The position numbers and the translations under genes were made by a program. From positions 29,428,384-29,492,383 of the forward strand of contig NC_072740.1 in the NCBI RefSeq assembly GCF_026930045.1: a stretch of DNA of 64,000 nucleotides. The letters run 5' to 3'. Below the pieces are notes generated by a model that searched no databases, had not been told where the DNA came from, and saw only the letters and a list, made by a program, of their open reading frames with translations. The stretch is from Uloborus diversus. Lineage: Eukaryota. This document shows positions 6,001 to 63,560 of this stretch, piece after piece (position 1 is the first letter of the stretch; each line of letters begins with the position of its first letter).

Positions 6001-6597
6001 GGAGAGAGGGGGACAGCTTGGAATCAGAGTAAGTTTTGTGAGAGAGAGGGGGGGGGGAGAAGGACCTGGTGTACCAAACTGACCAAGTGTCCCATCTTGA
6101 CTCTTGGTGGCCCTGTTATCAAAATAAAACTATATCTTTTAATGAAGGAATAAAACTGTTACCAGCTTTAAATAATCTCAAACTGCTAGGATTTATTTTA
6201 CAGTGATTTTTAAGCTTCAGTGTTTCAAAAAAGAAAAAAACTAGGTTTTGATTATTGCCAATCAACATATCGTCGCCTCACAGCAAGAGTAAGACATGTG
6301 CAAAAAGAGAGTTTCTAGTAAAATTGATTTGAAATTTCGATGTTTTTTTCAATGCTGAATATCTGAGGTTGTAATTCATTGATTTAAAAAAAAAAAAATG
6401 GGAACTCCCCTAGCTTTTGAGTACATTTTAAGGGGTGTACTTAAATATTCAATTAATCTTGTAGGAAAATAATTAAATTCACTTGTCCTACTGTTGCTCT
6501 TAATGTTTCTAAAGACAACTAAGATATAAAAGCGAATAGAAACATGTCCTAGTTTTTTACCTAAAAAAATCATTTTTAATTAAGACACTGCTAAGAT

Positions 6598-8401: not shown

Positions 8402-9541
8402 GAACTCTATAATAATGCTATAATTGAACTAAATATTCACCTTTTGATAATGGTGTCATCCTAACTGCGCATTTTTTAAACTCCTATTTTTATAATGCTA
8501 CAGAAGTTGTAGATAGAAAATAAGCTTCAAATATACTTTGCTTTCAATTTTGACAGTATTTCAATGAAATAGAATTTTTTCTGCCATTAATCGGCATTAA
8601 CTATTATCATGCCTAACAGAGGAACAATGCTGAAAAACTTCGGACAGCTTTTGAGAGCGTTTTATAGTTTAAAATAAAATTATCACTTGCCTGCTGCAAT
8701 ATATATATATATATATATATATAAATCATGAAAAACAGAAACTAAAGTTAGTGTGCGTTAATATGTTAGAGCAACATTAGCAAATTTAATATTTTGGTGC
8801 TCATATTTTACTGAAACAGAAGGATATCTGATTTAACCTAGTGTTGCCCTAAACTAAGATGAATTTTGGAACTTCTGCAACACAAAGTTATGATTTGCAC
8901 ACAAAAGATTTGAGAATATAAAATTTTTTTGAACATTTCACTAAATAAAGGCACATTTGGTAATATTAACAATACCATGAACTCATTTTTGTTTTTTTGA
9001 AGATGTCTTACTGTTGCTCTGAGGCGACGATATATAGATAAGTAACAAAATAATACACACGCCCTTGAAAAATACATGGTCTATTTCAAAGAAGCAAAAC
9101 ATGCACGTCACTTTGCTCTCAAGTCTGCCTCTCCATGATTATGAAGAATGAGGTATGGGTCATTTATCATCAGTTATAGGTGTTGCATGAGCTTTCCATA
9201 TGCCCTAAAAAACTCAATAATGACTGATCTGCCAGAGTTTGAAAAGACATGATTTTTGTAATGAGACTGCACATTAAATATGGTGACTGCTCAGTGAAAA
9301 AAGCATGAAATTTGGTAATATGTCGTCTGCGAAGTACAACAGTGGATGGAAAACAAAGCTTTCTAAGAGGGATAAAAAAGAGTTGACCCACTCCGGTTGT
9401 CCGAAAACTCAAGAAATCTTTACCCCAGATAACACCAGATAGGTACTAACTGGTAGCTAATACAGTATTAGCACTGACCAGACGAGTGACTGAAGAAATG
9501 GTTCGGTTCAACTTGAAGATTGAAGGCAAGGCAGTGGTAAT

Positions 9542-9765: not shown

Positions 9766-12360
9766 AACAACCAAATACTTGACAGCTCTGAATGGGCAGT
9801 GAGTATGGATATTGCAAAAACACTATTTTGAATAAGAAGAAATTAATTCAGTCACATTCTGTCAAGACCATGCTTTAGTGCATTTTGTGAGTTGGGAAGT
9901 AAGATATCACAAAACTAGAGCCTTACAAGCATTATTATTGTTTGTTTCATATCATTACGATCTTTAACTTTCATTTTTCTCGGACTTTTTTTCTATCTAA
10001 GTATTTTCTAACTCTTAAGTGTTTTTTCCTTTTGAAAATAACCTTAAAATTTTTGTAGATGTTTCCATATGTGTGATACGGCAAAAGTTAGATGTAGGTC
10101 AGATACGTATAGTTATATTTTCCGAATATATATTCAAAGTAAATATTTATTGAATTTTATTATTATTATTATTTTTTTTTTTTTTGAAATTTATCTACTA
10201 AAAGTATTTTGAATATCAACCAAAAGTTAGATTTTTAACACCATACCAATTTTTTTTCTAACAACTCAAGTAATTTAAATCACTTCGTGTTTTGAGAAAA
10301 TATTCAAAATTAAGTACTTAAAAAAAGATGTGAGAAGCTTTAAGCTTTCAATATTTAACCAAAAAAAAAAAAAAAAAAAAAAACAGGGCTGGCCAGACTG
10401 ACTTTTTCTTTTTTTGAAAACGAATATTCAAAATCATAAGCTGAAAAAGAAAAAGCATAAAATTATTACTTATAATGTTATAGTTTCAAAAAAATAAAAA
10501 ATAAAAATGCTGTGTTGCCTTTAAAATGAAAAACAAAAATGCTGAAATTTTTTTTTTAGTTTGCCATTTCTAAGTAAAAGTTCTTTTAATATTGATGCCA
10601 AATGCATGTGAAGTGCTGCAAGGAAAAAAGAAATATAAATAATGAGATTCTGTCATTATCACAGTTAAATACAAATGATGAAATTTTAACTCTCGTACAA
10701 AGTGTACCTGGGTTTATACTCAAATGAGAAGCACATTTTATCAACATGATACTATCCACATAATTGATATGAAGGGTTATCCTTGTGTACCTTCTCTCTT
10801 AGGGATATGTAAAAGACCAGGTTTGTGTACACTTTTCAGCATGATTTAACAGAACTGAATGAAAAAATTATACATACTGTCAATAACTTTGCTTAAAAAA
10901 AGTTGAGTAGAGTGTGGCAGAGTATTTTATTACAATTTATCTGGTAATTTTTATGTCACCTGAGATTACTTTTTTGTAATTTTCAAAAAATGTTCCTTTT
11001 TGTCATAATTTCATTCTACTTTTTATTTCTTTTTTCCATTTGTGTAAATAATATTAAATCTATATATCTATTTGAAGGGAAAGGTAAATTAAGAAGAAAA
11101 GCTCAACTACGTGAGTGTCATCCATTTGAAGCTGATTATTCTACTGATTCATCTTCGGATTTACGATCTCAATCCCGATCTCGATCTTTGTCGAGAGCAG
11201 GTATACATTTTAAGTTTCTTTCATTAAAAATTTAATGCTTTACCATATTACATTAAATGCATTAACTTATTATGTAAAACAAAATATAGTGAAACCGAAG
11301 TTTTTATGACAACATTTTGACAAGTAACTGCTTATGTTTTCACTTACTGACTGAATTGGACAGATGCCTTCTTTCAGTTACAGAAGAGTGTAGTAAGAAT
11401 TTCCTATTTATGATAACACATAAGGAATTTGAAAAACATCAAATACAGATACCTCTGAACACCTGTAATTCCCTCCCCCCCCCCTTTTGGAAAAAGTATT
11501 ATGTCGCACTACTTCTCAGTGTGAGTATGTAATGCAATATGTATATGTAGAGGGTTATTTAATATTCCTTCTGAGGTTTTGATGGTTAAAAAAAAAGAAA
11601 AAAACTCTGATGAATGTAGCAAAGAAGGGCATTTGACAGGGTGCAGAAAAAATTCAACTTTAATTCACATGCATTACAAGTATTCTCTTTGTAAACACTT
11701 GGTCACTCAACATACATCAGTGTAATATTTTATCTCCAACCACATTCTAACCTACATAATACAAAGCTATTGATGGTATGTACAGGGTGTCCTGAAATAG
11801 ACTGACCATTTTCAAAAATGTATAAAAGGAAACCGGTTAATGGTAAAAAATAATTTCTTGCGGAAAATTGACGTGGTGAACTGTAAGTTTTTTCCCCATG
11901 GGGTTCTAAATTTTATTTAGAATTTTTTTCAATAGATAGTGCTGTAGATAGTAAGCCTGTAAGTTAAAAGCTTACTGAAATTCACCGTTTTTTTCTTCGA
12001 TTGCGATTAGGACATGTGGTTCATAGTGGTGCCGACTCCATGGGGCCTGAGGGGGTTCGAGCTCCTTAAAAAACATTTTGGGGGTGGACAGAGCCCCCCA
12101 ATAACATATTTTGATTTCTAAAATCACAAAATTAGGTTAGCATTTTTCATTTTCGTTATTTCACGATAATTTCCTTGCAAAATAATAGTAAAAATCATGG
12201 TAAAGTTACGGTGCTGCAAGTTCTTTGAATTTATTGCACTTCGGGTAAAATCCGAACCGGCCTTGCGGCTGTGGCGACATGAAAAAGACTGGAGCAAAAG
12301 CGCCTGGAACTCTCCGTCTTGCATCCGTCGCCTTTACGCTTCGAGACAATACGATACCCC

Positions 12361-12375
12361 GGCTATATAAAGCCC
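12361..12375 (+). promoter_or_regulatory. TATA box (GGCTATATAAAGCCC) about 80 bp upstream of the transposase ATG
   Basis: It is a consensus TATAAA in GC-richer context immediately upstream of the 5' leader of the transposase ORF. Confidence 0.4.
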
Positions 12376-12453
12376 ACCCTGCTGGCGCAGGACGCAGTCA
12401 TTCAATGAGAATAGTTTCATTCAGTGCTTAGTGTATTCTGAATTAAGTTTGCA

Positions 12454-14935
12454 ATGGACAAATTTGTTACCAAAAAGGCACGTTTGGAAGTTACTGCAGA
12501 AGAAGACCATACTGCAAGTCAACCACCTGCAATTATTGTGCCTGCTTCATCGTCATCGGGCGAGAACGGTTCACAGCGGAAAACCTGGACAATCCGCTAA
12601 GGGAAGATCATTTCAGAAGTCTTGGTTGAACAAATATACATGGCTAGAATATGAAGCTTCAACTGAAAAAGTTTTTTGCAAAACCTGCAAAGAGGCAGAT
12701 GCTAAAATGCTATTACAATTTTCTTCAAAAAAAGAAGAAGCCTTTATTTCCATAGGATTTTCTAACTGGAAAAGGACTTTGCAAAAATTCTGTTTTCATG
12801 AAAATACGTTTATGCACAAAGGAGTTCTGAACCTGAATTCTATTAATAACCGAAGCGTGGCCTCCCAATTAAATGAACTGTTAGATAGTGAAATTAAGAA
12901 AAGCCGTTTAGCTCTGGAGACAATTTTTACTACCATGCAATTTCTATGCCGACAAGGACTAGCATTCAGAGGGCACGAAGATATACACTCAAATTTTTTT
13001 TCAATTGTTAGAACTCCAAAAGAATGACGTATCCGAGTTAAAAGTTTGGTTAGGGCGTTCGGGGTACAAGTGGATGTTCCACGATATTCAAAACGAGATC
13101 ATTAATATTCTAGGAAAGTCTGTGTTGAGAAAGGTATTGGCTTTGATCAAGAAGACTGAACATTTTTCTATTACGGTTGACGAAACAAGTAATTCTTCAA
13201 TTCACGAACAAGTGTCATTTTGTATTCGTACTGTCGATGATTCCTTAATCATCAACGAAGACTTCATTGGCTTATACGAGACCCCCAACACTGAATCGCA
13301 AACTCTGTTTAGTATTTTAAAAGACTTTTTGCTTGTCTTGATTTATCAATGGATAACATAAGAGGACAGTGCTATGATGGTGTTGCGAATGTGAGAGGTA
13401 AGTTCATAGGACTAAAAAAGTTGGTTTTGGATGCACAACCAAAGGCACTTTACGTGCATTGCACTGCTCACAGTTTAAACTTGGCAGTTGTAGACAGTTT
13501 CCGCCATCTTACGTCTATGAGGGATATTATGGCTTTAGCCAAGGACTTAATAAAAACCATAAGGGGGATATAACCCAAAAAGATGGGACTTTTCAGAAGC
13601 ATACGCTGTGAGAATGCCAACGACCAAGCTGGTCTACGACCCCTTTGCCCGACTCGATGGACGATGCGAGCTTCTAGTATCTTGAGAATATTGAAATGCT
13701 TTGATGAACTTTTACAGTTTTTTGAATGCACAACCAAAGGCACTTTACGTGCATTGCACTGCTCACAGTTTAAACTTGGCAGTTGTAGACAGTTTCCGCC
13801 ATCTTACGTCTATGAGGGATATTATGGCTTTAGCCAAGGACTTAATAAAAACCATAAGGGGGATATAACCCAAAAAGATGGGACTTTTCAGAAGCATACG
13901 CTGTGAGAATGCCAACGACCAAGCTGGTCTACGACCCCTTTGCCCGACTCGATGGACGATGCGAGCTTCTAGTATCTTGAGAATATTGAAATGCTTTGAT
14001 GAACTTTTACAGTTTTTTGAAACATTTTCTGCTAAAGATGAAACAGAGGCAGATTACAAATGTACAGGGTACCTTGAGTCAATGTTACAATTCAAGACTT
14101 ATTTCCTTTTACGTCTTTATTGCCATGCAATGAACTCAGTTGAGGATGTCAATGAAAAAATTCAATGCCCTCATCTAAGTGTTGCTAGTCTAGAAAAAAT
14201 ATATGAGGGCCTGATTTGTGTATGGAATGGTAGGCGTGATAGTTTTGAACACTTTTGGGAATTGTGTTTAAAAGAAAAACTTCGCAAGTTGATGATACTT
14301 CGCTTCCTCGGAGTCGACGTATGCCAAAGAAATATGAAAACGACGATGCCAGCTCACCGCACATTTTCGAAGCCCCAAAAGAGTTCTACAAAGCAATTTA
14401 CATTGAAGTTTGTGAAACGGTGCAATCTTGCATTACTGAGCAGTTTGCATCAACTGGACTTACACAGGTCATTGCAGTTGAACAAGAGTGCTTGCTTTTA
14501 GTAAACAGAGCTGAAACAAATTTTGAAAAATCAACTGAGTTTTTCAAAAATGACCTAGACATTGAGAGACTGTGGTTACACTTGAATATGTTAGCCGATA
14601 TTACTAGTAAAAAGCAACTAGTCTTAAAAGACATGGGTGATGTAAGAAAGTACATTACACAACAGCCTGCAGTTGGAGAAATGTTATGTGAAATAGTAAA
14701 GTGCATTAAGCTTCTTCAAGTAGTTCCAATCTCGACAGCAACAGCAGAATGGTCATTTAGCACCCTAAAACGTCTGAAGTCATATCTTCGATCAACAATG
14801 GGGCAGAAGCGATTGAACAACTTGGCTGTTCTTCATGCCCACCAAGATGTTTTGGATGAATTGGATATCCGACCACTCATCAACGACTTCATATTCAGTA
14901 ATCCAGTCAGACAATCAACATTTGCCCCTTTCTAA
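12454..14935 (+). pseudogene. hAT-superfamily transposase (TTF-type zinc finger + DUF4371-like + hAT C-terminal dimerisation domain; ZMYM1/Charlie-Buster-like), frameshifted
   Basis: Four consecutive six-frame ORFs (12431-13027, 13005-13361, 13349-13573 and 13878-14935) carry the pieces in order. (1) The first has a zinc-finger segment WLNKYTWLEYEASTEKVFCKTCKE ... FSNWKR ... H. (2) The second has a DUF4371-like block ELQKNDVSELKVWLGRSGYKWMFHDIQNEIINILGKSVLRKVLALIKKTEHFSITVDETSNSSIHEQVSFCIRTVD. (3) The fourth carries the C-terminal motif ATAEWSFSTLKRLKSYLRSTMGQKRLNNLAVLHAHQD, typical of hAT dimerisation domains. The pieces sit in different frames, so there are at least three frameshifts. The initiator ATG lies at 12454. 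Confidence 0.7.
13432..14021 (+). repeat. Internal tandem duplication, 2 x 295 bp, inside the transposase gene
   Basis: The segment TGCACAACCAAAGGCACTTTACGTGCATTGCACTGCTCAC ... CAGTTTTTTGAA occurs twice head to tail (13432-13726 and 13727-14021). Two ORFs therefore start with the identical peptide MGLFRSIRCENANDQAGLRPLCPTRWTMRASSILRILKCFDELLQFFE. Confidence 0.85.
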
Positions 14936-15690
14936 AAACACTCTAGCCCTAATAATGGTATTTGCAGTAAAATTGAAAGTCTTTATAAAATCAATAAATG
15001 CGTACAGAATGTTAAATTTTCAGCATCGAAATATTTACTCTTACTTATTATATTACTATATTACTATTGTACTGTATTAATTATTTTCAAATACTTAAAT
15101 ATTTTTAGGGTGTAAGACCCAATCAAAACTCGCTATTTATGTACTTTTTGACTGAAAGTATTAGGCATACTGTACTAACTTTATCAACTGTATTAAAGCA
15201 TTAACTTTGAGATATTGTATTTCTTTAATGAACCATGAGCCTATTCAAAGTAAGCTTAAATTAGCTGTTGCACTTATTAATTTCAGTGCTATTACTAGGC
15301 AATAGCAATATTTTATGTTTTATTCTTTCAATGATAGTTTAGGATTAATTTTAATAATTCAGTCTTTTCTGAGCTATATATTCAGCGCTTTGTAATAGTC
15401 TATATGCATAATTTTTACTGTAAATTAAACTAGCATTTTACAAAAATACCATTCATGTTTTCGTATTTTTTTTCTTTTCAAAGCTAAAAAATGTATTAGT
15501 CTTGTCGAGTTTTCAGGGTTTTAATTTTGATCACATGATTCTAAATTGCTTTAAAAAAATCCCTGTAAAACTCACTAATTTTCAACTAAAATTTAGAAAA
15601 TTTCCCGGAGCAAGACACTTGGTATTTAGAAAGAAATACTTAATTAATAGTATAGTAAAATTTGGCCAAAAAATGGCCAATCCCAAGCAT

Positions 15691-15692
<2 letters not shown>

Positions 15693-15733
<41 letters not shown>
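15693..15733. repeat. poly(A)41 inside the 3' part of the hAT-carrying element
   Basis: An uninterrupted A run. It is in frame in ORF 15502-15801 as poly-Lys, which is spurious. Confidence 0.9.
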
Positions 15734-15736
<3 letters not shown>

Positions 15737-17689
15737 GCCCCCTCAATATTTTTTATAAGTCGGCGCCCCTGTGTGATTGCAGTCGACGGTCGATAGTTTG
15801 AAAAAATTGTTATGTAATTTTGTTCAAATTCGAAAAATTATGATGTAATGTTCAATTTTTGATTCATGGGCTTGCTATCTGCAGTGCCAACTATTGAAAA
15901 ATTTATGAACTAAAATTTACCGCTTTGCTGGGAAAAAAATTATGGCCCGCCACATGAATTTTCTGCAAGAATTATATTTTTATCATTAACCGTTTTTATG
16001 TACTAATTTTTTCAAAACATTCGGTCTTTTTCAGGACACCCTGTATAACTTGTTTTTGTAACTATGTTAAATTGTGTGGAAAAAGATTTACGAAAACTTG
16101 GTTTTTACATACTACAACAAGAAAAGTACATTATAGAAAGTATAGGCAGCTGGTGCACGAGAAAAGTGGGCTTCAAAAGAAGTGAGGGGCTGGGGGTCAG
16201 GAAGTGTAACCCCTGAAGCTGATTTTTTTTTTGTAAAACTGCGTTATACAAGTGGTTTTTAACACTATTGATAAAATAACTTCTAAGAATATGAAATATG
16301 TCATCCAAAATTTGGATCAATGACCACTGTAGACTTTCCCCGAGTCTGCCCACGTTTGGAGTACTTTTTTTCAAAAAATTCAGATATTGAATTAGTTTTT
16401 TTTTTTAAACTGAAAACTGATTCAAAGTTGGAAAACAAACGAAAAAATAATTATTTGCTCAAAAAGATTTTAAAAATGAAAAATTTGAGCACAAATTAAG
16501 CGAATTTTGCAGTTTACCGCCAACTACTCTAAACTCGTTTCAACTCATTATGTTTAAACGTTCTTTCTAATGTAAGTTGATACATTACTTACCTGTGTTT
16601 TGAACTAAAAGCTTCATACCAGTCCCAAAATTTAGAAAAATGTATCAATTTTATTGAAATTCAAAGATTTTTCTTTGGAAAAATCCTTAATTTTTCGCAG
16701 TTAAATACCCGTAAAAATTCAAAATGCTGACCTAGAGCTTAGATTATTGTTCAAAACATAGCTAGCAATCTGGGAAACATTATTTGAAAAAATCAGATTA
16801 ATTGGTATAAAACTTTTGGAGTTATGAGATTTGTCCTAAATGAAAATATCGAAAAAAGTAGTTTCTCAGAAAATGCATTTAAAGATTTTAATATCAATGT
16901 ATTTGATAATTTTTGAGACTAAAATTCTCAATTATAGTAGCTAAAACATTCTTTGACTATACTTGTCAAATATGTACTTTTCTTAAAGTTTTTCCTTTTT
17001 CCTGGTTTTTTGGGTCCATAGGGTCTTTAAGTTAAACTTCCGGTTCTTATGGCATCACTTCCAGTGTACTTAATTGGCTCTAACTTCGTTTTTAATTATT
17101 GCAAAAACAAAATATTAACAATTTTAGGGTCCCAAAAAAATATTTTTTTAAAATATAGACTAAAATTAAAACCTTTTTTGATCAAAATGGTCATTTTAGG
17201 GTATGCAGAGCCCTTAGTTCCATTCTTATGAAATAAAATGAAAAATGTTCATTTATTTGAAATGTTTAGTTTTTAGCTTCGTGAAATATACAAATCCACC
17301 ATTTAATATTTTTTTTCTTCAATCGGTCATTAATTATCTCTGAAAAGTGAGGGGCAAGGACACTTTTCTTTTCAAAGTGAGTTGGCAGTTACCCCTTTGT
17401 CCCTCATTCAAGCTGCCTATGATGACAATGACTGACAAAAAACCTTGCACTAATATTTGTGAACATGGTATTAAAATCTGTTCGCTAATCACAACAGCGT
17501 AACATGGGCATGATTTGTTGCAGCTATCGACACTGTCGACCAGCGCCCTCTCGAAGAGTTAACTTACCCCACCGCCTATTAGGAATTCAATTCATAGAAC
17601 TAAACTTACCCCGCCATGTATTAAGAATTCATAGAACTAAACAATTATCTAAACATTTAATTTGCAATTTCAAATATTTTGGTCAATCT

Positions 17690-18440: not shown

Positions 18441-19364
18441 AATTCACGGGGACCGAAACTTTTATACATTAAATCAGGGTTATTCATAATATCAGGATGA
18501 GAAAAATTAAAAAAAAAAAAAAGCACTTACCTTATCTTAAACCCCTAATAAGTAACTGCGCAAAAATGACCATAATTAGAAAGTGTGCACTTTTTATTCA
18601 GCATTCCACGATTCCATGACTTATCACACGCTACTTAATTTGAAATTTTAAACTACTGAGTAATAAATGTTTGACAATTTCCTTGATACTTGACTCGAAA
18701 TAGTTCTTTTTCAACTTTATGGAGAAAAGAAAACACCCTGTCTTTTGCAGCCTGCTGCATGAGATATGTTTTTAGTTTCGAGAACAAGAAAAGCATTTGA
18801 AAAAGTAAGTTTTAATTGGAGTTTCACTATTGCTTTCTGCATCAGAACCACTACTCGTTAGTTGCCCCTCACCCTCGCCTGTCAAAAATTACTGATTCCA
18901 AGAAAAGTCTTTTTCTGCTTCGGATAATCCAATATTCCCAATCCAATATTTCCTAGCTCCAATTAACAAAATGATTTTTTTTCGGCTGTTAAAATAATTC
19001 GTTATTTTGGGGTTCATTATTCGCTAAATAGGGGTTTTTGCCGTCATTTCAGTCGGGGGAAAAAGAAGAATTCATTAAATAGAGGTCCGACTGTATTATT
19101 AGTATAGATTGTTAATCAAAAAAAAAAATTTGCATCATTAAACTTTTAAAAATCTTTTCCATTAAGACATATGTAATTGTATTTAATTCATTTTATTGCA
19201 TTAATTAAATTTTTATTTGGTTCATTTAAAATGAACTAATTGCTTGAACAACTCATAGTCACTTGATTAAAATATAAATTTAAAACTCAATGTCTCGAAA
19301 CTTATCTTTCTTGAATTTCATTTCTGTCCCTTTGACATTCAAGATAGACATCTTCAACTGTATA

Positions 19365-21348
19365 CAGGGTGTTCCATTTTAACCTGCAAGACCTTTATTT
19401 TCGCAACCCTTAGTCCTGGATGTATATTTCTATTCGCAAAAATGTTCAAAATCAGATGAAGAGTTATATTGAAAGTTTGAAACAAAAATAAAAATGAGTC
19501 AAATAATACAAAATTTAACTTTTGTATACGGCCCCTAGGTCCCCTAATTAATAGGTATTCCAGTTTAAAGTTTTAAGTGACCATACAGAAGATGAGATTG
19601 GAACTTATCGCTCTGTCAAAAGAATGACAGGTCATCAAAGTAAGAAAAACAAGGTATTCGTATTTTTCATTGCTATTTAAAAAAAAATTAAAATGTTATG
19701 CCGTGATATGCCAAAACACACTGCAAAACCTGGAACAATTTGAAAAACCACACTCTGTGCACACATATAATTTTAAACACTTATTAACTCTGGGATGAGA
19801 TTTTTCCGGCTTTTGCCGGAATTCTGGCTTTTTCTGTTCACTTTTAGAACCTTTCCTCCTTTTCCTCCTTTTTTTGCCTCTTTCAAGCCTTATTTTTCTC
19901 AAAAATCGGAAAAAAATACGTTTTTTTTCAAATTTTCGGTCCTCGATTTCTTATTTTTTCTACTTTTCTCCTGCGAATCTTCATCCTCCGCGATATCTGC
20001 CAAAACCGTATGTTTTGGAATCATGCCAACGATGTCAAACACGTGCTGCTCCGAAATTTGCATGCCTTGTATGAGATTTCAATCTTTTTGCATCCTGCAA
20101 GTATTTTAATTATTTTTAATGTTGAGTGTTTTTCACTATATGCTACCTTATATCTGCTTATTTTATTCATCATTTCAATAATATTTTTATCTCTTTAATT
20201 TATTTTGGAAAAAATGCAAAAGTCAAAACAAAAAATGTGGCATAACACTCACAGTCTCAAATTTTATTGAAACTTGGCATGGTTACTTTTTTGTGTATTT
20301 AAGAAAGTGTAAAAAATATTCATGGTGAATCTCAAACTGTTTAGGCTTTACAGCCTGTTAAAATTTTGAGATTTCATGATTAAATGAGGCGTCTGAAAGT
20401 TGTTCTTTTGATTCCGAAATTGTATTAGGAAGTTTTTATAGACAAATTTTGGGTTCCAGTGCAAGGAAAAAGATAACCAATTGTTTATATACATGTATAT
20501 TTATTTATTTTCAATTCTTACTATGAAAAGTATGTTCTACAACATAAAGAAATTTTAGATTTTTCTCTCCGTTGTAAATTTTTACTTCACAAACAGACCC
20601 GAATTTTAAAATTTATGTTCTGACTCGTTTAACACTATAAACTCAAACGGTTTTAATGAAAAAAATGTATTTTTCTCTAAAAAATATGAAAAGTTGACAC
20701 TATTGTGTGACACAGCCAAGATTGACCTCTGACTCCCCAACCCTTTGTTCAATAGCTCAGAGGTTAGAAATTGTTGCCTCTTTTTCAAAATTTAGATTTA
20801 TTTATTAATAAACACTCTTGCAAGAAATGGTACAATGCAGCAAACTGTACAAAATTATTACTTTTACTTAATTAAATAGGTATTACCTTTAAAACTGGTA
20901 AATTTGCCATTTTTTATTGAATTTTTGAAAATCATGACTTCCAGGTTCTATATTGATGCTGTTTTGGGTATCATCCCTTTTACGAAATTTTTTTGGATTT
21001 CTTCCTTTTTGCTCTCTGACCACTCTCATCCCTGTAACTGCTATATTTCCCCCCAAAAGGTGTTGGTGATGGCTAGTGGTGTAAGTCACAAAACGCTGAG
21101 TTTTACATCTTGGTGAACATTGATGCTACTAATTTCAAATTTTTTATGTTGGAATCATAATTTAATGGAGATTTTTTCCCTAAATATAAGTAAAAAGTTA
21201 AATTTTGTATTTTTTGACTTATTTTTACTTCAAATGTTCGATATCTTATCTCTGCATCTGATTTTGAACATTTTTGCAATTAAAAGTATACATCTAGGAC
21301 TAACGCTTGCAAAAATAAAGGTCTTGCATGTTAAAACAGAACACCTTG
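19365..21348. mobile_element. Non-autonomous 2.0 kb long-TIR element of the CAGGGTG family
   Basis: TIRs of about 95 bp match in inverse orientation. The left TIR is CAGGGTGTTCCATTTTAACCTGCAAGACCTTTATTTTCGCAACCCTTAGTCCTGGATGTATA... and the right one ends ...ACACCTTG. TA flanks both ends. Internal ORFs are low-complexity with no recognisable domain. Confidence 0.6.
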
Positions 21349-22132
21349 TAAAGGTGTGTTAGAGGGGTTGTGTTTTTTATAAGCATTATCAAAAGTTACT
21401 GCGAATTCCTAATGCTACAAAGATTTTCTCTAATTAATAGTACAATATGCTGTTTGATATTTTAAATAATATTTAGTATGTCACCTTCTTATAATATGTT
21501 TAACTAAACATTCTTCCGTTAGCTCTGTGCCAAAACATTCAAATTTCAAGACTAATGCTTTGCTCTCTGAAATGTACTGACTATTCTGTTAATGATCTTG
21601 TGTTAGTGAAATTCGTAAACAAATTATCGTAATAACAGGAAGGACTAAAGATCCAATTGAAACGTAACTTAATTATTTAGTTTACAAAACACTCATTAGG
21701 TTGTGAATATTTTGTGACCTCTGGAAATAGTCCTGATTTTGTCCATGCTTATTTTTTTTTTCACTTGTTACTATACCAAAAAGCTGCATGTGTCCATGTC
21801 ATAAGCAAGTAAAGCATTAAATACAAACCTACTTTCAGTTCTGCGGGTTGGTAAACTGATGGTAAGTTGCCCCAGTTAGGTTGAAACACAAAGTTCCATT
21901 TTTCATCATGATAATTCACATACCCATTTTACCATTTTCAAAATTTTGACACTGATTGGAAATTCAAAATATTCCGAAAATAATGCTGTGACTGTGTCAA
22001 ATTTATAGTATAGGGTTTTGATTTTTTTTTAACTCCCATACATTTAAAACAGATGTGAAACTAATTAAAAGTTGTGATAACTGAAAAATAAAGTGTCAAC
22101 TGCTTATCATATCGTTAATTTCTCTGTTTTAA

Positions 22133-41396: not shown

Positions 41397-41443
41397 GTAA
41401 ATATCTTACAAAACTTGATAACATTAATTCAATGCTACATATA

Positions 41444-42019
41444 CAGGGTGTCTCAAAAGGTCATTGCCAAGTTGAACATACACGGGTCTGTCATAACTTG
41501 ACAAACAAGATTTACATAGTAACTTGTGTCCGAAAATCTGAGCAGCGATAGCTAGAGGGCAGGCTGATGGGAGAGTAGGAAGCGTGATCATTTCAGATGA
41601 TGACCTTGCAGGAGAATGATGAATCGGATTTTTAATGAAGAATTGTCTGATATGATTTGGCCAAAATGACATCAGACACAGATCTCATCGCCAGGATGGT
41701 AGAAGCAGCAGCATGTATCCGTGACGCACCTGCGCATTTTGAATGGCTCCGTGAATCCATGCACCGACGTTGTGAAGCTTGCATTGTTGCAAATAGAAGG
41801 AATTTTGAACATTTTCCGTAATTTAGTTATAATCTTTAATGAGAAAACATATTGAAACCTCTTTCGGCATCATTTCTTTCTCTCCCTCTATGCCTACAAA
41901 CATTTCCCTCTAGCAGTCATTGTTCACATTTTCGGACACAAGTTCCTATGTTAATCGTTTTTGTCAAGGTATGACAGACTAGCATATTCAGATTGGCAAC
42001 AACCTTTTGAGACACCCTG
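41444..42019. mobile_element. 576 bp MITE of the CAGGGTG long-TIR family (TIR CAGGGTGTCTCAAAAGGTCATTGCCAA)
   Basis: A 27 bp terminal match is followed by a second subterminal inverted block (GTCTGTCATAACTTGAC...CTTGTGTCCGAAAAT). There is no ORF. It inserted 48 bp downstream of exon E. Confidence 0.65.
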
Positions 42020-42500
42020 AAAAATCAATGAAAATTTAAATATAAGAGTGGTTTTTGATTGATTTACATTTTGCATCCGTTGCTGAAACTCAAAAAATGC
42101 TCTTGTTTTCAAAATTTTAAGTATTTTGATTGTAAAATTTATGCATAGAGAAGAGATATTAAAAGAAAGTTATACTTCTTAAAGTACTTCTACTACTACA
42201 TTATTATGTCAATAGCTCCCGTATGAAGCAACATGATTCTTTACTGATTCTATTTGTATATTTAAAAACAAATAAATAAAAATTTTAATTTTGATGACTT
42301 TGTTAATATTTTGAGCAGAGCAAAGAATAATCTAGTATTCTAATATTAAGAATTTGATGCTGTAATGAAGAGCTACTTATCTACTAAATATGGAATTCAG
42401 ACATTAAATAAGGATTATTTTACCCACTTTAACTTAAGCAATATCTTAATGCTGTAAGAGTTATTGCATATAGTGTCTCTATATAGTGTATACTAGTGTG

Positions 42501-47459: not shown

Positions 47460-50266
47460 TAGGGTGGTCCTTATTTTTGAAGTTGCAGATATTTTACGCG
47501 ACGCCCCCTCAATTTGTTCCATTGTACAAATAAATGATCCTTGCAAAATTTAAAGTCAATCCATGAATATTAACACGTGCCCCTAGGGTCCCCTTTTTTG
47601 AGTTTCGAAGAAAAAATTGCGGATTTTCTCATTTTCATGTAAAAATATTCTAACGTTTTATATATAATAAAATATTCTAGAATAAATATTCTAACGTAAT
47701 TTTGAACCTCAATAGGTGCTGCTACTTCCAGATCGACCATTTTCTCACTTTCATTCAGTAAAATTTAACATGTTACAGAGAATAAAATGTACACCAATGG
47801 CCTTGGGTCAAGCATACCGCTCTTCTGCGCTTGTTCCAACCAAGCGGTAGGGGAACGTTTCTTCCCATCAAGATGGACTAAAGGGATTCTATAGTCTATT
47901 AATGAATGACCAAGGCCATGAACGATCATTGACAACAACAAATTGCCTCCTCCAGGCTTTGGGGGTGTGGATTTACAAAATTCCCTGTGTATAAATTAGG
48001 TGTGTCAAATAGAGTCGCAAGGTTTCAATGCTGTAAATATAAGTAATTGCAATTATATTTTATTTCGCTGTTCTTTAGTTATAAACATACCTAAATGCTT
48101 ATGCAATTTTTAATTTTTAAAATATAACTTTCGAAAAATCCTTGATTACTGCTAACATAAAAATATACTGTATTTTCCATAGCTAAAATATAAATTAAGA
48201 AATAATATCCAGATCGGAACAATGTAGAAATCTATACTTTAAATTAATTTTCTTCTATTTCAGTACATAGTCCTTTTTTATCATCAAATTCTTGCGATTC
48301 ACAAGATTTAGAAACTGAAATGGGTATCTATCCTAACCTGTTGAACTTTTGTTTTCTACAGCTGGTGTACCACAATGCAAAAAAGCTTGACAACTATTAA
48401 TATCTCCTTGCCTTTCATCACTGTTAGACAAATGCCATATTAGGGATAAAGATGTTGTTCATTTCTTTACAGCCTATGTAGATGCAGTAAATTTAAATCC
48501 AAATGACCTAGTGATCAATCGTACATTCCTTGAGAGAGCAAAAGAAATTCTTCGAGAGGTAAAATTAAATTTCCTGAATTTAAATTTAGATTCTGTAGTT
48601 ATTTACTGGAATACAAAGCTACATCCAGATGTAACTGGAAAAAGAACGTCGACAGGATTACCGTGATAGCTTCAGGTCCTAATATTGAACAGCTACTCGG
48701 AATTTTTTAGATATTTCTTCAGTTGTATATGATATCTTAGATGATAGTTCTTTATTGCTAACTGTTCTACTGTAGTGTTTGATACAACGACTTGCAATAC
48801 CAACCGTATAAATTGTGCATGCAATTTTTTAGAGCAAAAACTGAACTGTGATATATTACATTTGGATTGCCATCATCATGCACTTGAAATCGTACTGCAG
48901 AGTGTGTCCTTAAAGAAGTTCTTGCCGTTCTTAGTTCTAGATCAGATATTCAATTATTTAAGTGCTTCAAAATTTGTGGAAAGATCTCCATTATTCAGAA
49001 CTTAAAACATTTCAATCAAGTACACATACCACTTAAATTCTAAAAGACGAAGTGGATGACATATTATTGTTCGTAAAAAGCGGAATTGAGAAAGATTACA
49101 GAGAATTCTCATAACTTGTAATAATATTTCCTGGTGAATTTCCCCCTACAGGTATATGTTTTCGGCAACCTGGAGCTTATCCCTGAGCCACATGGGTGGC
49201 AAAAGGAATTTTTGTTTGAAAATTTTTATATTTAGGAAACAATTTAAATTGACCTTACATGAAAAGAAAGTCCCTTCAATGCTGTTTACAAAGCTCTTTT
49301 ACAATTAAATTCTGTATGAAGATATGTTTTTTTGTAGCAACCCAATCGAGGCTCCTTTGAATAATATAATATCCCTGAAAAACTAGCAGCGTACAAAATG
49401 ACGACAAACATGCAGCAGAAGCAGTGATTGGAAAATTCATAAATCACTTATGGTATTTAGGGGATAAACTAGTAGCTTTGTTCGTATTGGATGAAGGAAT
49501 TAACTTTGAAGATAGAAAAAGACTAGTTCAAAAAATGCTTGTGATAAGGAAGACGTGTCTGATGACTGTTTAACAAATTTCAGATAGCAGTAGATGATTT
49601 AGAATACTTTCTTAGTAAAGATCTTCCTCTTTATAGAATCAATTACGAGTCAATAAAATTGTTTAATAAGTTGCAAATACTAAAAGATTTTTTCCTATTT
49701 GATCCTGATTCACGGCAAAATGCTTAAGCTATTTAAAGGGAAGAGAGATTGTTAAAATACTGAAAATTGTGAATGATACAACTGAAAGAAGAGCACAATA
49801 TATTAATCAAAGAATTTCACAACCAATTTACCAAATATAAGTCACAAAGCAATTTATTTTACAGACCGTCCAAGACTATCAAAAAAAAAATACACACTAT
49901 CAAGATACATTGACAAAAGCGTACGATTAAGGAAAGTTTAAAAAGCATTATTTCATTCTTATTCAAAGTAAAATCTTTAGATGATATAAAGTAATTAAAA
50001 AGGTTAATTTTAGTGCTATCTCACTGTAAAAATATTTTGGAAACCTAGGAGAAACGATGTACTGGGTCTGAAGTAAAAACTCGGAAAATTTGTGGGAAAA
50101 TTATCAAAAGTGTTCAAGTTCAGCGGCCTAGGGGCACGTGTTATTATTGACCGATCGAGTTCAAATTTTGCACACGTTACTTTTTATTATAGTGTCACAA
50201 AACTAGGGGGCGTCACTTGTTGAATTCCGGAAAAAAAATTTTCCCATATAAATAAGGACCACCCTA
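47460..50266. mobile_element. 2.8 kb non-autonomous hAT element (TIR TAGGGTGGTCCTTATTT..., 8 bp TSD ATGGGCAG)
   Basis: A perfect 8 bp direct repeat ATGGGCAG is present at 47452-47459 and 50267-50274. About 150 bp of inverted similarity is visible at the ends: TAGGGTGGTCCTTATTT..GACGCCCCCT..AACACGTGCCCCTAGG in both arms. It splits the Tc1 transposase between ..NCWQYG and QPAVPP... The internal ORF 48775-49005 (..LDCHHHALEIVLQ..) may be a transposase remnant. Confidence 0.65.
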
Positions 50267-54879: not shown

Positions 54880-55500
54880 GTAGCAAAACAAGCAGAATGT
54901 TGGATTTAGCAAACTTCATTTGGAGTATGCTGTTCAGTTTTATCCTGAAAAGATATTATTTATTGGAAATTGTTCAGAGGAGGGCTACTAGGTTTGTAAA
55001 TAAGCTCTTTGATTTAGATTATGAAACTAGACTTAAAATGCCAAATCTGAACAGTCATGAGCAAAAGTGAATACGTAGGGACATGATCCAGTCATTTGAA
55101 TGTATTCAAATGGCAGATGCTGACAGAAAAAAACTTCTGTAAAGATGACAGAGCCAACAATCACTGTTCAGAAGGAAGTGGCTCTTAGTAGAGTGAGACT
55201 CCTTAATGGGAAGGAGTCAAACTTTGGCCTTGACTGATTGCAGCCTCGCCTCTATAATTAAGGCTTTGCTCTGAACATTTCCAGCAACTATGCACCCAGG
55301 TTAATTGCTAGCTACTAACCACAGGACGTTTGGACCCACTAACTTTACTAGAACCTACACCCCATGTACAGGATGGGTATTTGACAGTGTCAGGGTCTGA
55401 ACTCAGAACCGCCAGACCCTGAGCCATTCAGAGGTCCAATCAGAACATTCAGAGCTCAACAACCATATTCCCTATCAACTAGGCTGCCTACAGTGGAACT
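54880..55500 (+). mobile_element. 5'-truncated CR1/L2-like LINE fragment (ORF2 C-terminus + 3'UTR), older copy of the family at 60.6 kb
   Basis: The translation NKQNVGFSKLHLEYAVQFYPEKILFIGNCSEEGY..LEIVQRRATRFVNKLFDLDYETRLKMPNLNSHEQK*IRRDMIQSFECIQMADADRKKLL.. matches, collinearly, the intact ORF2 sequence ASNKANKMLGF..PHLEYAVQFWSPYLKKDIFVLERVQRRVTKLVRGLSDLDYDTRLNRLNMYSLEQRRVRGDMIQLLKFI. Stops and frameshifts are present. The 3'UTR shows a stem-loop CAGGGTCTGAACTCAGAACCGCCAGACCCTG. Confidence 0.6.
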
Positions 55501-59250: not shown

Positions 59251-60651
59251 GAAACATAATAATGTAAATGCAGCTTCAACATTTTTTGTGTTTTACTGAA
59301 CTATTTTCACAATTATCACTCTTGCATTTTACTCATTTACACAATATCACTCTTGCATTATTAAAGAAAATTTTCAATAGGGTACGTTGCCATGTATTGT
59401 AAAGGATAAGGAATACATATACTATTTCAGTCCTTCCAGTTCTTTTCAGTCCATTAAACTTTTTTCTTCTCTTTCATACATATGGTTTATAATGTATCAC
59501 TGAAAAAGGAACTTTTACGTTACTAATTCAAATTGTTATCAATTTATTTTCAAATGTCATTCATCATTTTTATGTGTCATACATATACAGGGTGGCGACA
59601 GATCAGGAAAATCAGGGAGATCAGGGAAAAGTCAGGGAACTTTATTAATCAGGGAAAAGTCAGGGAAATATCAGGGAGTTTTGAAAAAATAACAAAAAAT
59701 CAGGGAAAATTTATTTTATGAAGAAATTTTTTTTTTTTTTGCTTTACAAAATTAAGTACTCTAATTCCCTGCGCATTTTCCGCCAATCTGTTCAAAAAAA
59801 AAAGGTAAAATTAATGAGGTGCGATTATACACTGCCGCATATTTGTGCATCTTTTTTCCTCAACGTCAAAGTATTGAATCTTACTTATTAAACCACAGGA
59901 TGAACTTCCTAAGATTGCTTCTGTGTCTGTTAGGTTGTTTATTTTAGAAAGCTTGAAATTTCCTATTACGCTTTCATTGCTACGTAAAATAAACAACCAT
60001 ACAGGCAAAGAGGAAGCCTTCATTAACGCCTTAGCTCCTTTGCCTTTATTCCATTGTCTCAAAGTAATTAGCGTACTGTAATCACGATTTCAAGAAGAAT
60101 CTTTGGTTCTTGAATTAATATTATAAAAGCGTAAAAGCTATTACTTCTTCGCGTTTTTAATTTAATTGCTAAAATTGAACTTTCAATTAAAAAAACTTGT
60201 GTTTTTTTTTTGCCGTTATACTATTTGTTGTTGCCGCAGATTATAAAGGTTTTCTTTTCTTCAGACTTAAGTGATTCTTTAATTTTATAACCAAGTTGTA
60301 TTCTTTTATATATTTTGGAATTAACTAATTTTTTTTTCTTTTTTTTTTCTTGCATTTCAAAGTTTTTTTTTACAAAAGCAATCTAAGATTTTTTTTCGTT
60401 ACATACTGAAATCATTTGAAATAGAGTTAACTTGTGTACTTAAGTAAAAATCTTTATTTTTTTTATTGTTAAAATGCTGTATTCATTCATTAAAACCTAT
60501 GTTCTTGATTAGAGAAAAGCTCCCTATGAATGGATGTCAAATGGTTTCATCTGTTTTGCATAAATATGTCAATTAGTTATACAAATACAAATATACAAAT
60601 ACAAATGTGACGACCAGCAACAGGCTCTGGGCCCAGCTAGGCTGGTCCTAG

Positions 60652-63507
60652 TCAATTAATTAGTCCCCAATGAAGATCAATGGCCCTCTTAAAGCTATCC
60701 ACTCCCTTGCTCATTACCGCCTCTTCCGGTAAGCTATTCCAAGTGCCCACGACCCTGCTAAAGTAGTAGTTTTTCCTGATTTCCAAGTTAGCCTGAGATT
60801 TAAATAGCTTAAAACAATGACCCCTTGTCCTGCTTTCCCCACAAAAATTTAATCCATTTACATCTTTCATTTTGATAAATTTAAGTAACTGAATCATGTC
60901 CCCTCTGACTCTCCTTTGCTCCAGGCTGTACATGTTAAGCCTATTCAGTCTGGTATCATAATCTAAATCTGAGAGTCCCCTTACTAATTTAGTTACCCTT
61001 CTTTGAACCCTTTCCAATACAAAAATATCTTTCTTCAGATAAGGCGACCAAAACTGAACAGCATACTCCAAATGAGGTCTTACTAAACTCCTATATAAAG
61101 GCAGAAGAACTTTCTTAGATTTGTTTGAAATAGATCTATTGATGAACCCAAGCATTTTGTTGGCTTTGTTACTAGCAATACTGCACTGTTGACTAAACTT
61201 GAAGTCCTGACTTATAAAGACACCCAGATCCATAACATTTTCTGCCTGATTTATGACTGAACCCTGTAAACGATATCTCATACGCTTATTTCCATGACCT
61301 AAGTGTAGCACTTGACATTTCCCTACATTAACTGCCATACCCCATTTATCTGCCCACTTAGTAATATGATCTAAATCCTCTTGCAGCTGTTTTACTTGTT
61401 CTTCATTTTCGACAATCCCCATAACTTTTACATCGTCAGCAAAACAATTCATGCTTCCAGAAATATTTTCATTGATGTCATTCATAAATATAATAAACAA
61501 AAGAGGCCCTAAAACTGATCCCTGAGGAACCCCACTTAAAACATCACTCCAATTAGAATGATTTCCTCTCACAACTACTCTTTGCTTCCTACCAGTAAGC
61601 CAATTTCTAACCCAAAGTAAAGTTTTTCCTCCTATTCCAATGTCAGCTAACTTGCTGAGAAGAGCAACATGCGGTACCTTGTCAAAAGCTTTTTGAAAAT
61701 CAATATAAACAACATCCACACATTTTTTGTTATCTAAAGCTGAGGTAACCTTGTCGTAGAAATGCAATAAATTAGTAGTACAGGATTTACCTTTCCTGAA
61801 ACCATACTGCAAACTAGTCAACAGACTATTAGTCTCTAAGAACATCATGATCTTAATTTTGATCAAAGTTTCGAAAATCTTACAAATCACCGAAGTCAAA
61901 CTTACAGGTCTATAATTCCCAGCAATACCTTTAGACCCCTTCTTGAAGAGTGGCGTTATGTTAGCCAGCTTCCAGTCCTCTGGCACCATCCCCGAGTTAT
62001 AAGAAGCATTGAAAATATTCAAAATAACATCCACTAATTCCTCTGCACATTCAACTAAAATTTTTGGATAAATATTATCTGGTCCCGGAGCTTTAGTTGC
62101 TTTAATCTTTTTCAAATGAAATAAAACCTCCTCCCTGGAAAATACCAAATCCTCAAGCTGTATAATAGCTTGTGTCTTGTTAGTGTCAACTGTTGAGATA
62201 CAGTTATCGTTAAACACACTGGAAAAAAAGTTATTTAGAACATTTGCAATATCCCTATCGTTTTGGATTAAATTTCCATACTCATCAACCAAAGGCCCAA
62301 TTTGACTGTTTCGAGCTTTCCCGGAATTAGCGTAAGCAAAAAACCTCTTAGGGTTCCCATCAATGTCATCTGCCAGCCTTTGCTCCAATTCCCTTTTCTG
62401 AATCCGTACCAAATACTTAAAATTTCGCCTTGCCTTACCATACTGGAGCCTCTCCGCACTCTGACCAGTTTCTTTAAACTTACGAAAAGTGGCTTGCTTA
62501 TAATTAAGAGCTTCTTTAGTCTCCCTGGAGAACCACATGGGCCAAATTTTGGTACTAACACCTTTTCTCCTAAATGGAACATAGTCCCCAACGGTTTTAG
62601 CAAGTTTATCCTTAAATTCCATCCACTGCTGATCTACTTCGCTACTTTCCAACCCTGATGAAAAAACCTCTTTCAAGCTCTGCCTAAGTGCAACAAAATC
62701 AGTGTTTCTGAAATTGGGCACAAACCTAAAATTATCATCTTTGCACACTTCAAATTTAACCCGGAACCTAATGCTGTTATGATCACTATCTCCAATATGC
62801 TCCCCTACACTCAACCCCTGAACAAAACTACCTATGTCACAAAAAACTAGATCCAAAATCGCCTCCTCTCGAGTTCCCTGAGTTACAACTTGATCTAAGA
62901 AACAGTCACCAATTACTTTTAAAAATTCCTCTTCTTTGCCATTACCAGGGTAAAAATTATTCCAATCAATACCCGGAAAATTGAAATCCCCCATTATGAT
63001 AACGGATCCCTTACTGGACATGTCACTAATAATACGGTACATCTGTTCATCTTGTCCGTGGTTTGAATTAGGTGGCCTATAAATGTTTCCAAAGCGTAGC
63101 TTTTTGTCCTTACTGCTGATCAACTCCAGCCAAACCATATCAATATCAGTAGGCTTATCATTTATGACCAATTCATTGCAAATAAAATTGTCTCTAACAT
63201 AAAATAAAATCCCACCACCTCTTTTACCTACTCTATCCTGTCTGAACAAATTATACCCAGCAATATGTAATAACTCTGCATCAGATTCGGTAGCCCATGT
63301 CTCTGTAATTCCAATAACATCCAACTTCTCATCCATAACTATGCTTTTCAATTCATCCATCTTGTTCCTAATACTGCGAGCATTGGTATAGAAAACTTTA
63401 AGCATGCCTAAGTTGCTTTTATTTAACACCCTGAAATTTCCTAAATTACAATTGTTAACATTACTACTCTTGTTCGTCACTTTATTTCCATTTCTAGCAA
63501 TACCCAA
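60652..63507 (-). CDS. LINE ORF2: apurinic-like endonuclease + reverse transcriptase + CR1-type C-terminal domain (951 aa, uninterrupted)
   Basis: The EEP endonuclease motifs are ITETW..GYNLFRQDR..GGGILFYVRD..IIMGDFNFP. The RT motifs are YRPVSLTSVICKIFE..QYGFRKGKSCTTNL..YIDFQKAFDKVPH..SGVPQGSVLGPLLF..FADDVKVMG. The CR1-clade C-terminal signature is CGESRTRGHCFKLFK..RKNYYFSRVVGTWNSLP. There are no internal stops. Confidence 0.85.
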   Translation of the reverse strand: MGIARNGNKVTNKSSNVNNCNLGNFRVLNKSNLGMLKVFYTNARSIRNKMDELKSIVMDEKLDVIGITETWATESDAELLHIAGYNLFRQDRVGKRGGGILFYVRDNFICNELVINDKPTDIDMVWLELISSKDKKLRFGNIYRPPNSNHGQDEQMYRIISDMSSKGSVIIMGDFNFPGIDWNNFYPGNGKEEEFLKVIGDCFLDQVVTQGTREEAILDLVFCDIGSFVQGLSVGEHIGDSDHNSIRFRVKFEVCKDDNFRFVPNFRNTDFVALRQSLKEVFSSGLESSEVDQQWMEFKDKLAKTVGDYVPFRRKGVSTKIWPMWFSRETKEALNYKQATFRKFKETGQSAERLQYGKARRNFKYLVRIQKRELEQRLADDIDGNPKRFFAYANSGKARNSQIGPLVDEYGNLIQNDRDIANVLNNFFSSVFNDNCISTVDTNKTQAIIQLEDLVFSREEVLFHLKKIKATKAPGPDNIYPKILVECAEELVDVILNIFNASYNSGMVPEDWKLANITPLFKKGSKGIAGNYRPVSLTSVICKIFETLIKIKIMMFLETNSLLTSLQYGFRKGKSCTTNLLHFYDKVTSALDNKKCVDVVYIDFQKAFDKVPHVALLSKLADIGIGGKTLLWVRNWLTGRKQRVVVRGNHSNWSDVLSGVPQGSVLGPLLFIIFMNDINENISGSMNCFADDVKVMGIVENEEQVKQLQEDLDHITKWADKWGMAVNVGKCQVLHLGHGNKRMRYRLQGSVINQAENVMDLGVFISQDFKFSQQCSIASNKANKMLGFINRSISNKSKKVLLPLYRSLVRPHLEYAVQFWSPYLKKDIFVLERVQRRVTKLVRGLSDLDYDTRLNRLNMYSLEQRRVRGDMIQLLKFIKMKDVNGLNFCGESRTRGHCFKLFKSQANLEIRKNYYFSRVVGTWNSLPEEAVMSKGVDSFKRAIDLHWGLIN

Positions 63508-63560
63508 AAAAATTTCATTCTCTCGATACCTGATGCTTGAACCATGCCCCCCATTCCAAC

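Follow-up and report, generated by a model that had tools for sequence, protein, structure and literature searches.

hAT elements are defined as DNA transposons of 2.5 to 5 kb with terminal inverted repeats (TIRs) of 10 to 25 bp, typically starting with YARNG, and an 8 bp target-site duplication (TSD) (PMC3942097). Nesting has a described precedent in Drosophila mojavensis, where a mariner-like insertion lies inside a copy of the hAT element BuT2 (PMC3942097). The locus described here is situated in a 64,000-nucleotide stretch of the genome of Uloborus diversus (contig NC_072740.1, positions 29,428,384 to 29,492,383 of the forward strand), hereafter called the window, in whose own numbering all positions are given. 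It comprises a 4.26 kb inverted-repeat unit (11783–16043) that carries the dead copy of a hAT transposase gene. Very probably, it consists of two unrelated cut-and-paste DNA transposons, a hAT copy being nested inside a TA-flanked hairpin element that resembles a miniature inverted-repeat transposable element (MITE). As in the BuT2 case, one class II element lies within another, each has its own termini, and the whole can be mistaken for a single long-TIR element. In contrast to that case, it is the hAT that has entered a TA-type element here, exactly at the apex of the hairpin of the latter. The mechanism of nesting is not new; this is an ordinary nested insertion.

With regard to its protein, the inner element is akin to the DUF4371-type hATs, among them Tip/Buster-group elements such as BuT2 and Tip100, and to the ZMYM1-like or TTF-type proteins of Podarcis lizards; as in these, an N-terminal zinc-finger region is followed by a DUF4371 RNase-H-like core and then by a C-terminal dimerization region. 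The Podarcis hAT copies are among the closest systems. They share with it the D/D/E residues and the HCxxH motif, TIRs of 15–16 nt starting with YAG, a length of about 3.5 kb, a single intronless open reading frame (ORF) of 726 aa and, in a family member, an 8 bp TSD; the window copy is 85% identical to them in amino acids and 86–91% in nucleotides. It differs from them in being a pseudogene, in containing a 295 bp internal tandem duplication and in lying inside another transposon.

Termini of the hAT Copy

The ends of the inner element were located by comparing the DNA around six homologous hAT copies, full length or partial. Four of these (L001–L004) are Logan contigs, the proteins of which cluster with Podarcis proteins, whereas L005 lies on a chromosome of the spider Oedothorax gibbosus and L006 on a chromosome of Podarcis raffonei. 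The window is collinear with L001–L006, at 86–91% nucleotide identity, only between 12024/12025 and 15770/15771, and beyond these points the DNA flanking each homologue is unrelated. The family ends in imperfect TIRs of 15–16 nt, YAGKGGCGCCGACT, that start with YAG. The left end reads CAGTGGCGCCGACTCC in L001 and L004, CACTGGCGCCGACTCC in L006, CATAGGCGCCGACTCC in L005 and TAGTGGTGCCGACTCC in the window; the right end, as the reverse complement, reads TAGGGGCGCCGACTTA in L004 and CAGGGGCGCCGACTTA in both L006 and the window. Around the same termini, the P. raffonei copy shows an 8 bp TSD, TTCCTTCA, without any mismatch. The full-length copy L004 measures 3,527 bp and the window copy 3,748 bp, both inside the size range of hATs.

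Because of these internal TIRs, the unrelated flanks and the 8 bp TSD of L006, the transposase gene belongs to a canonical hAT, the ends of which lie inside the interval 11783–16043. The initial annotation had headlined this interval as one long-TIR element carrying a hAT gene, or else as a lineage of hATs that has long TIRs and targets TA, and did not contain the second, internal pair of termini near 12024 and 15771, at which the homologues end. Its fallback reading, which places a hAT inside a long-TIR element with a TA target, agrees with the internal termini, the unrelated flanks and the TSD of L006: the long TIRs and the transposase are of different families, and the latter has internal termini of its own. 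The coordinates of all features of the locus are collected in Table 1. The boundaries, domains and lesions given there and below are direct observations, as are the family termini and the TSD in other genomes.

The copy with the perfect TSD (L006:84-5797) is 5.7 kb long and contains about 2.3 kb of extra 5' DNA compared with L004, which is probably another nested insertion.

Table 1. Features of the nested locus, in window coordinates (a dot marks features without strand)
Feature	Position	Strand	Remark
TA flank, left of outer element	11781..11782	.	presumed 2 bp target-site duplication
Left arm of outer hairpin element (MITE-like, non-autonomous)	11783..12023	+	terminus CAGGGTGTCCTGAAA; pairs with 16043-15772
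Candidate left copy of the hAT 8 bp TSD, TGTGGTTC	12015..12022	.	register uncertain by 1-2 nt
Nested hAT transposon, dead copy	12024..15771	+	3,748 bp, duplication (295 bp) and insert (109 bp) counted; left boundary could be 12022
hAT left TIR, TAGTGGTGCCGACTCC	12024..12039	+	same end in other copies
hAT core promoter, predicted	12364..12403	+	TATATAAA (12364-71) and initiator-like CAGTCATTC (12395-12403), about 50 nt upstream of the ATG
hAT transposase pseudogene (DUF4371 and hAT C-terminal dimerization)	12454..14935	+	intact form 726 aa
Head-to-tail duplication, 2 x 295 bp, inside the coding region	13425..14014	+	units 13425-13719 and 13720-14014
Insertion of 109 bp (67 nt, then A42), this copy only	15625..15733	+	38 nt inside the right terminus of the hAT
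hAT right TIR, reverse complement CAGGGGCGCCGACTTA	15756..15771	-	same end in L004 and L006
Right arm of outer hairpin element	15772..16043	-	first 8 nt TGTGATTG = candidate right copy of the hAT TSD
TA flank, right of outer element	16044..16045	.	matches left TA

Architecture of the Outer Element

The outer tips of the inverted repeat lie exactly at 11783 and 16043. Each begins with CAGGGTGTCC and is adjoined by TA, a dinucleotide with a background frequency of 8.4% in the window (for each flank); the TA, instead of a recognizable 8 bp TSD, had been correctly described at these ends. The two arms match each other perfectly over the first 15 nt only (17 with the TA). From there, identity falls from 80% within the first 40 nt to about 67% by 160–200 nt, amounting overall to 74–77% over 175–240 nt (arm-against-arm blastn, E = 2e-24). 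The TIRs are hence far from the near-perfect 160 bp ascribed to them at the outset. Because the arms are only about 75% alike, the outer element is considered old. The arms show no similarity to the flanks of any homologous hAT copy, and a sensitive blastn search of the 64 kb window returned only self-matches, with no second copy of either the arms or the hAT.

Removing the hAT and one TSD copy leaves an outer unit of 504 nt without coding capacity. Folded with DNA parameters, this reconstructed sequence forms a single long hairpin with 180 cross-arm pairs and −106 kcal/mol. The centre of the empty site, as reconstructed, would read ...GGACA-TGTGRTTS-CAGTCGACGG..., and the hAT insertion point (12023/15772) falls essentially in the apical loop of the hairpin, which may point to a target preference for cruciform or loop DNA or may be coincidental. 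A palindromic MITE with such a central insertion mimics a single long-TIR element with a "wrong" target duplication. Left unresolved, the nesting could seed a spurious family of "long-TIR, TA-targeting hATs" in a repeat library; the main value of the present reading lies in annotation. Gained are the true ends of the hAT family (YAGKGGCGCCGACT, with an 8 bp TSD), a proposed chronology of the locus and a corrected, probable assignment of the CAGGGTG-type elements of the window, which is treated in the next section.

Superfamily of the Outer Element and the CAGGGTG-Type Elements

An exact scan of metagenome contigs with the 17-mer TACAGGGTGTCCTGAAA gave 92 loci, and in only two of them, L025 and L047, does the 17-mer occur as an inverted pair. 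The remaining single loci were treated as chance matches, just one of them extending, to 31 nt. A longer exact probe of 22 nt from the outer terminus had no matches among the metagenome contigs. L025 is a TA-flanked MITE of 566 bp bounded by the 17-nt terminus. L047 (contig ORMF011245262.1) is a TA-flanked element of 1,310 bp with the same inverted ends, the terminus TA-CAGGGTGTCCTGAAA of the outer element being identical to its end. It contains an ORF of 354 aa with DDE_3 (5e-9), HTH_32 and DUF4817, the domain set of transposases of the IS630/Tc1/mariner type.

Like Tc1/mariner-derived MITEs, the outer element is flanked by TA, has arms running over nearly its whole length, is non-coding and measures about 0.5 kb; with L047 and L025 it has the terminal 17 nt, TACAGGGTGTCCTGAAA, in common. 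Past these 17 nt it is unrelated to them and so constitutes another family. Judged from its termini, it is best read as an old, non-autonomous, MITE-like element of presumed Tc1/mariner type.

With five occurrences in the window, where 0.26 would be expected, the tip motif TACAGGGTG also bounds at least two further inverted-repeat elements (19363–21350 and 41442–42021), whose resemblance to the outer element is limited to about 12 nucleotides at the tips. The hAT had been proposed as the autonomous partner of the CAGGGTG MITEs of the window. The ends of the hAT, AGTGGYGCCGACT, are different, and a search of the window returns only the left site and its partner. Because the outer terminus matches an element encoding DDE_3 and DUF4817, the proposed partnership is not supported, and the CAGGGTG-type elements of the window are probably to be assigned to a TA-targeting transposase of the Tc1/mariner type rather than to a hAT.

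The first of the two elements, of about 1,988 bp, is of the form TA-CAGGGTGTTCC; it has 104-nt arms that are 87% complementary and no recognizable ORF. The second, of about 580 bp, has CAGGGTGTCT tips and arms that are about 85% alike, with TA on the left side only. It contains an ORF of 54 aa (41657–41821) that has no Pfam match and no similarity to the L047 transposase.

Transposase Pseudogene and Promoter

When the reading frame at 12454–14935 is frame-corrected and one duplicate is removed, a product of 723 aa results. In Pfam, it matches DUF4371 (1.6e-18) and Dimer_Tnp_hAT (6e-7), both above cutoff, which are the two hits foreseen for the corrected translation. The third feature initially ascribed to the protein, a TTF-type zinc finger, did not come out in the same way, the Pfam zinc-finger match staying below threshold. 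The intact homologue P0001 carries the same domains as the window product. In addition, the RNase-like families PF27073 and PF27039 are listed, as precomputed matches, on homologues. A search of PDB sequences with the intact homologue returned no match.

The closest intact relatives, P0001 and P0002, are 726 aa long and 84–85% identical in amino acids to the window product. Their 90% clusters hold proteins of P. muralis and P. raffonei named "zinc finger MYM-type protein 1-like" or "TTF-type domain-containing". Further relatives are a 76%-identical fragment from O. gibbosus and a 63%-identical protein from Nilaparvata. In an alignment of 12 sequences, D237 (VDET), D303 (YDGA), H330-C331..H334 (HCxxH), RPLCPTRW397 and E662 are invariant and are kept in the window copy; herein, the motif RPLCPTRWT is invariant across the 12 homologues. 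From knowledge of Hermes and other hAT enzymes, D237, D303 and E662 are presumed to be the catalytic residues. The nearly invariant R663 beside E662 is replaced by W in the window copy.

Upstream of the gene, the lizard copies have a nearly invariant block GGCTATATAAAGCCCACCCTGCTGG...CGCAGTCATTCA in common with the window, set in a 5' region of only about 75% identity. It contains a TATA box at 12364–12371 and, about 30 nt downstream of it, the initiator (Inr)-like sequence CAGTCATTC. Because it forms an island of conservation in the lizard copies, the TATA/Inr block is read as a putative promoter of the hAT itself. This is in line with the initial annotation, according to which the copy once carried a promoter with a TATA box.

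Lesions of the hAT Copy

Lesions were called by alignment to the intact copies L001 and L004 and to the intact 726-aa homologues. Four 1-nt changes shift the frame, of which two are +1 (near 12580 and, within a run of T, near 12994) and two are −1 (13326 and 14280). One stop codon, TAA at 13571–73, was created by a 3-nt insertion with substitutions. The in-frame indels are +12 (12493–12504), −6 and −3. Compared with L001 and L004, 82 bp are missing from the 5' leader.

The tandem duplication had been recognized at the start, with coordinates (13432–14021) that are 7 nt off; Tandem Repeats Finder reports 13425–14021. Its two units are identical at 294 of 295 positions (99.7%) and are joined at a TTTTG(R)A microhomology. 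The duplicated stretch is single-copy in L001–L006, and with a length of 3n+1 the duplication is itself frameshifting. Because the units are nearly identical, compared with a divergence of 9–14% from the relatives, the duplication is taken as the most recent lesion. The copy is dead, as first stated on the strength of the duplication and at least three frameshifts.

The 109 bp insertion ends in an A42 tract at 15692–15733. L004 and L006 are without it and both read GGTATGGGCC across the site. Its first 67 nt are unique within the window and no obvious target duplication is present; the insertion may be a very short retroposed fragment.

Proposed Order of Events and Alternative Explanations

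We infer the order of events as follows; promoter activity, the superfamily to which the outer element belongs and the way in which the duplication arose are likewise put conditionally. The outer MITE-like element (11783–12023 and 15772–16043, about 504 bp) would have been mobilized in trans by a transposase of the Tc1/mariner superfamily (DDE_3/DUF4817). An autonomous hAT of about 3.5 kb, with TIRs of 15–16 nt (YAGKGGCGCCGACT), a TATA/Inr promoter and an intronless gene of 726 codons for a protein with zinc-finger, DUF4371 and dimerization regions, would then have inserted at the apex of the hairpin, duplicating 8 bp of the target, the two copies of which have since degenerated. It would have decayed in place by four frameshifts, one stop codon, the exchange of R to W beside the catalytic E, the 82 bp deletion in the 5' untranslated region and the A-tailed insertion of 109 bp. 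The 295 bp tandem duplication would have come last, arising at the short microhomology, with replication slippage or unequal exchange as the probable cause.

Several points weigh against this nested reading. The flanks of L001–L004 may be assembly chimeras, so that true genomic flanks come from L005 and L006 only; those of the four contigs show no duplication and were left out of the TSD evidence, since short-read contigs of multi-copy repeats can be chimeric. In the window itself, the TSD candidates TGTGGTTC (12015–12022) and TGTGATTG (15772–15779) are identical at 6 of 8 positions, with a one-base slip in register. If the hAT starts at 12024, the base A12023 separates the left candidate from the terminus, and a start at 12022 requires a one-base deletion. 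The chance probability of a 6/8 match is estimated by our own calculation at about 3%, and the pair is regarded as a candidate degenerate hAT TSD. An arms-only (solo) outer element was found neither in the window nor elsewhere, the empty site being reconstructed and not observed. The link of the outer element to Tc1/mariner consists of the TA flanks and 17 identical terminal nucleotides only; this identity to L047 and L025 was the search criterion, and the sequences differ beyond the tip. A tblastn search of the window with the L047 transposase gave nothing significant, that is, no remnant of a related transposase.

If the locus were a single element, a hAT lineage with TIRs of about 200 bp, a TA target and true ends at 11783 and 16043, the CAGGG of the outer tips would fit the YARNG rule for hAT termini, and a clean 8 bp TSD at the inner ends in the window would not be needed, which is indeed absent. 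Relatives of 86–91% DNA identity, among them one in a spider and one on a lizard chromosome, nevertheless stop at the inner termini, with unrelated flanks and, in one instance, a perfect 8 bp TSD. Moreover, the arms are unmatched next to any homologue, and the outer terminus is found elsewhere as the end of a DDE_3-type element, which makes a single element highly improbable. Host DNA that had formed a local palindrome or been duplicated in inverted orientation, and which the hAT hit by chance or which resulted from aberrant hAT transposition, would account for the single copy seen and for the low identity of the arms. It is unlikely, since the arms match best, and perfectly, exactly at the TA-abutting outer tips and less and less towards the centre, at least two other inverted-repeat elements in the window end in the TACAGGGTG tip and the exact 17-mer bounds TA-flanked transposons elsewhere.

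It is also conceivable that the whole 4.26 kb unit was mobilized after nesting by a Tc1/mariner-type transposase acting on the 17-nt ends, the locus then being a composite insertion. The outer termini are still perfect over 15 nt and flanked by TA, and one window cannot tell nesting at the locus from nesting before arrival. On the other hand, the 64 kb hold no second composite or copy of the arms, the arms are about 25% diverged, more than expected of a recently mobile unit, and an extra event without supporting evidence is required, which leaves this version a slender chance. The idea that the inner segment is a LINE (long interspersed nuclear element)-mediated processed retrocopy of a domesticated ZMYM1-like host gene, inserted into the MITE, draws on the 42-nt poly(A) near the 3' end, the intronless gene and the name "zinc finger MYM-type protein 1-like" given to relatives by NCBI. 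Its probability is close to nil: family homology runs 38 nt past the poly(A) to the conserved TIR, the poly(A) lies inside the 109 bp insert that is absent from L004 and L006, the element has inverted termini and a conserved promoter of its own upstream of the transcript, and it belongs to a multi-copy family with 8 bp TSDs. A processed retrocopy was rejected on these grounds, the A42 being copy-specific and not at the very 3' end, and both the TIRs and the upstream TATA/Inr being present.

Occurrence in a Spider and in Lizards

The hAT copy of O. gibbosus (L005:3839-6483) is 93–94% identical in DNA to the Podarcis copies (L001, L004 and L006) along some 2.4 kb. For the window copy, identity to the spider and lizard copies is 86–88%. 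Lizards hold intact hAT ORFs of 726–727 aa. The guanine-cytosine content is 33% in the window, 30–31% in the spider flanks and 46% in Podarcis. Because of the 93–94% DNA identity between spider and lizards, the family is a candidate for cross-phylum horizontal transfer, or possibly a case of assembly contamination. A literature search on horizontal transfer of this hAT family involving Podarcis returned nothing relevant.

Two further ideas concern the route of spread. As a long shot, the hAT could be cargo in a composite with Tc1/mariner-type ends, movable by a TA-targeting transposase; if this were true, hitch-hiking in the composite might contribute to the unusually wide spread of the hAT family. 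More modestly, the window copy could be the fossil of a cross-phylum wave of transfer that included the spider, lacertid lizards and the host of the window. The high DNA identity between spider and lizard copies is the only lead of wider interest.

Other Elements in the Window

The window contains further mobile-element sequences. On the minus strand at 60652–63989 lies an apparently intact non-LTR (long terminal repeat) retrotransposon with an ORF2 of 951 aa, comprising endonuclease and RVT_1 domains, the best database relatives of which are only 57% identical. Ahead of ORF2 there is an ORF of 142 aa, extending in the direction of the window edge, which contains a GDSL-like esterase domain (9.6e-13). 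The element may be a CR1/L2-like LINE that is still active and has an esterase as its ORF1. Because the right arm of an inverted-repeat pair at 54956–55119 and 60861–61024 (164 nt, 71%) lies in this ORF2, the pair probably reflects an inverted LINE fragment.

An ORF of 137 aa on the minus strand at 58538–58951 matches the helix-turn-helix of Tc3-type transposases (PF01498, 6.5e-6, below the Pfam cutoff) and is probably the N-terminal remnant of a Tc1-like transposase. At 59584–59720, TACAGGGTGGCGACAG is followed by at least seven subterminal repeats of the type ATCAGGGA(A/G), resembling the left end of a DNA transposon of a different family, for which no partner end was identified. Two more inverted-repeat pairs, at 47500–47587 and 50127–50214 (88 nt, 74%) and at 6252–6306 and 8994–9048 (55 nt, 82%), may bound further DNA transposons.

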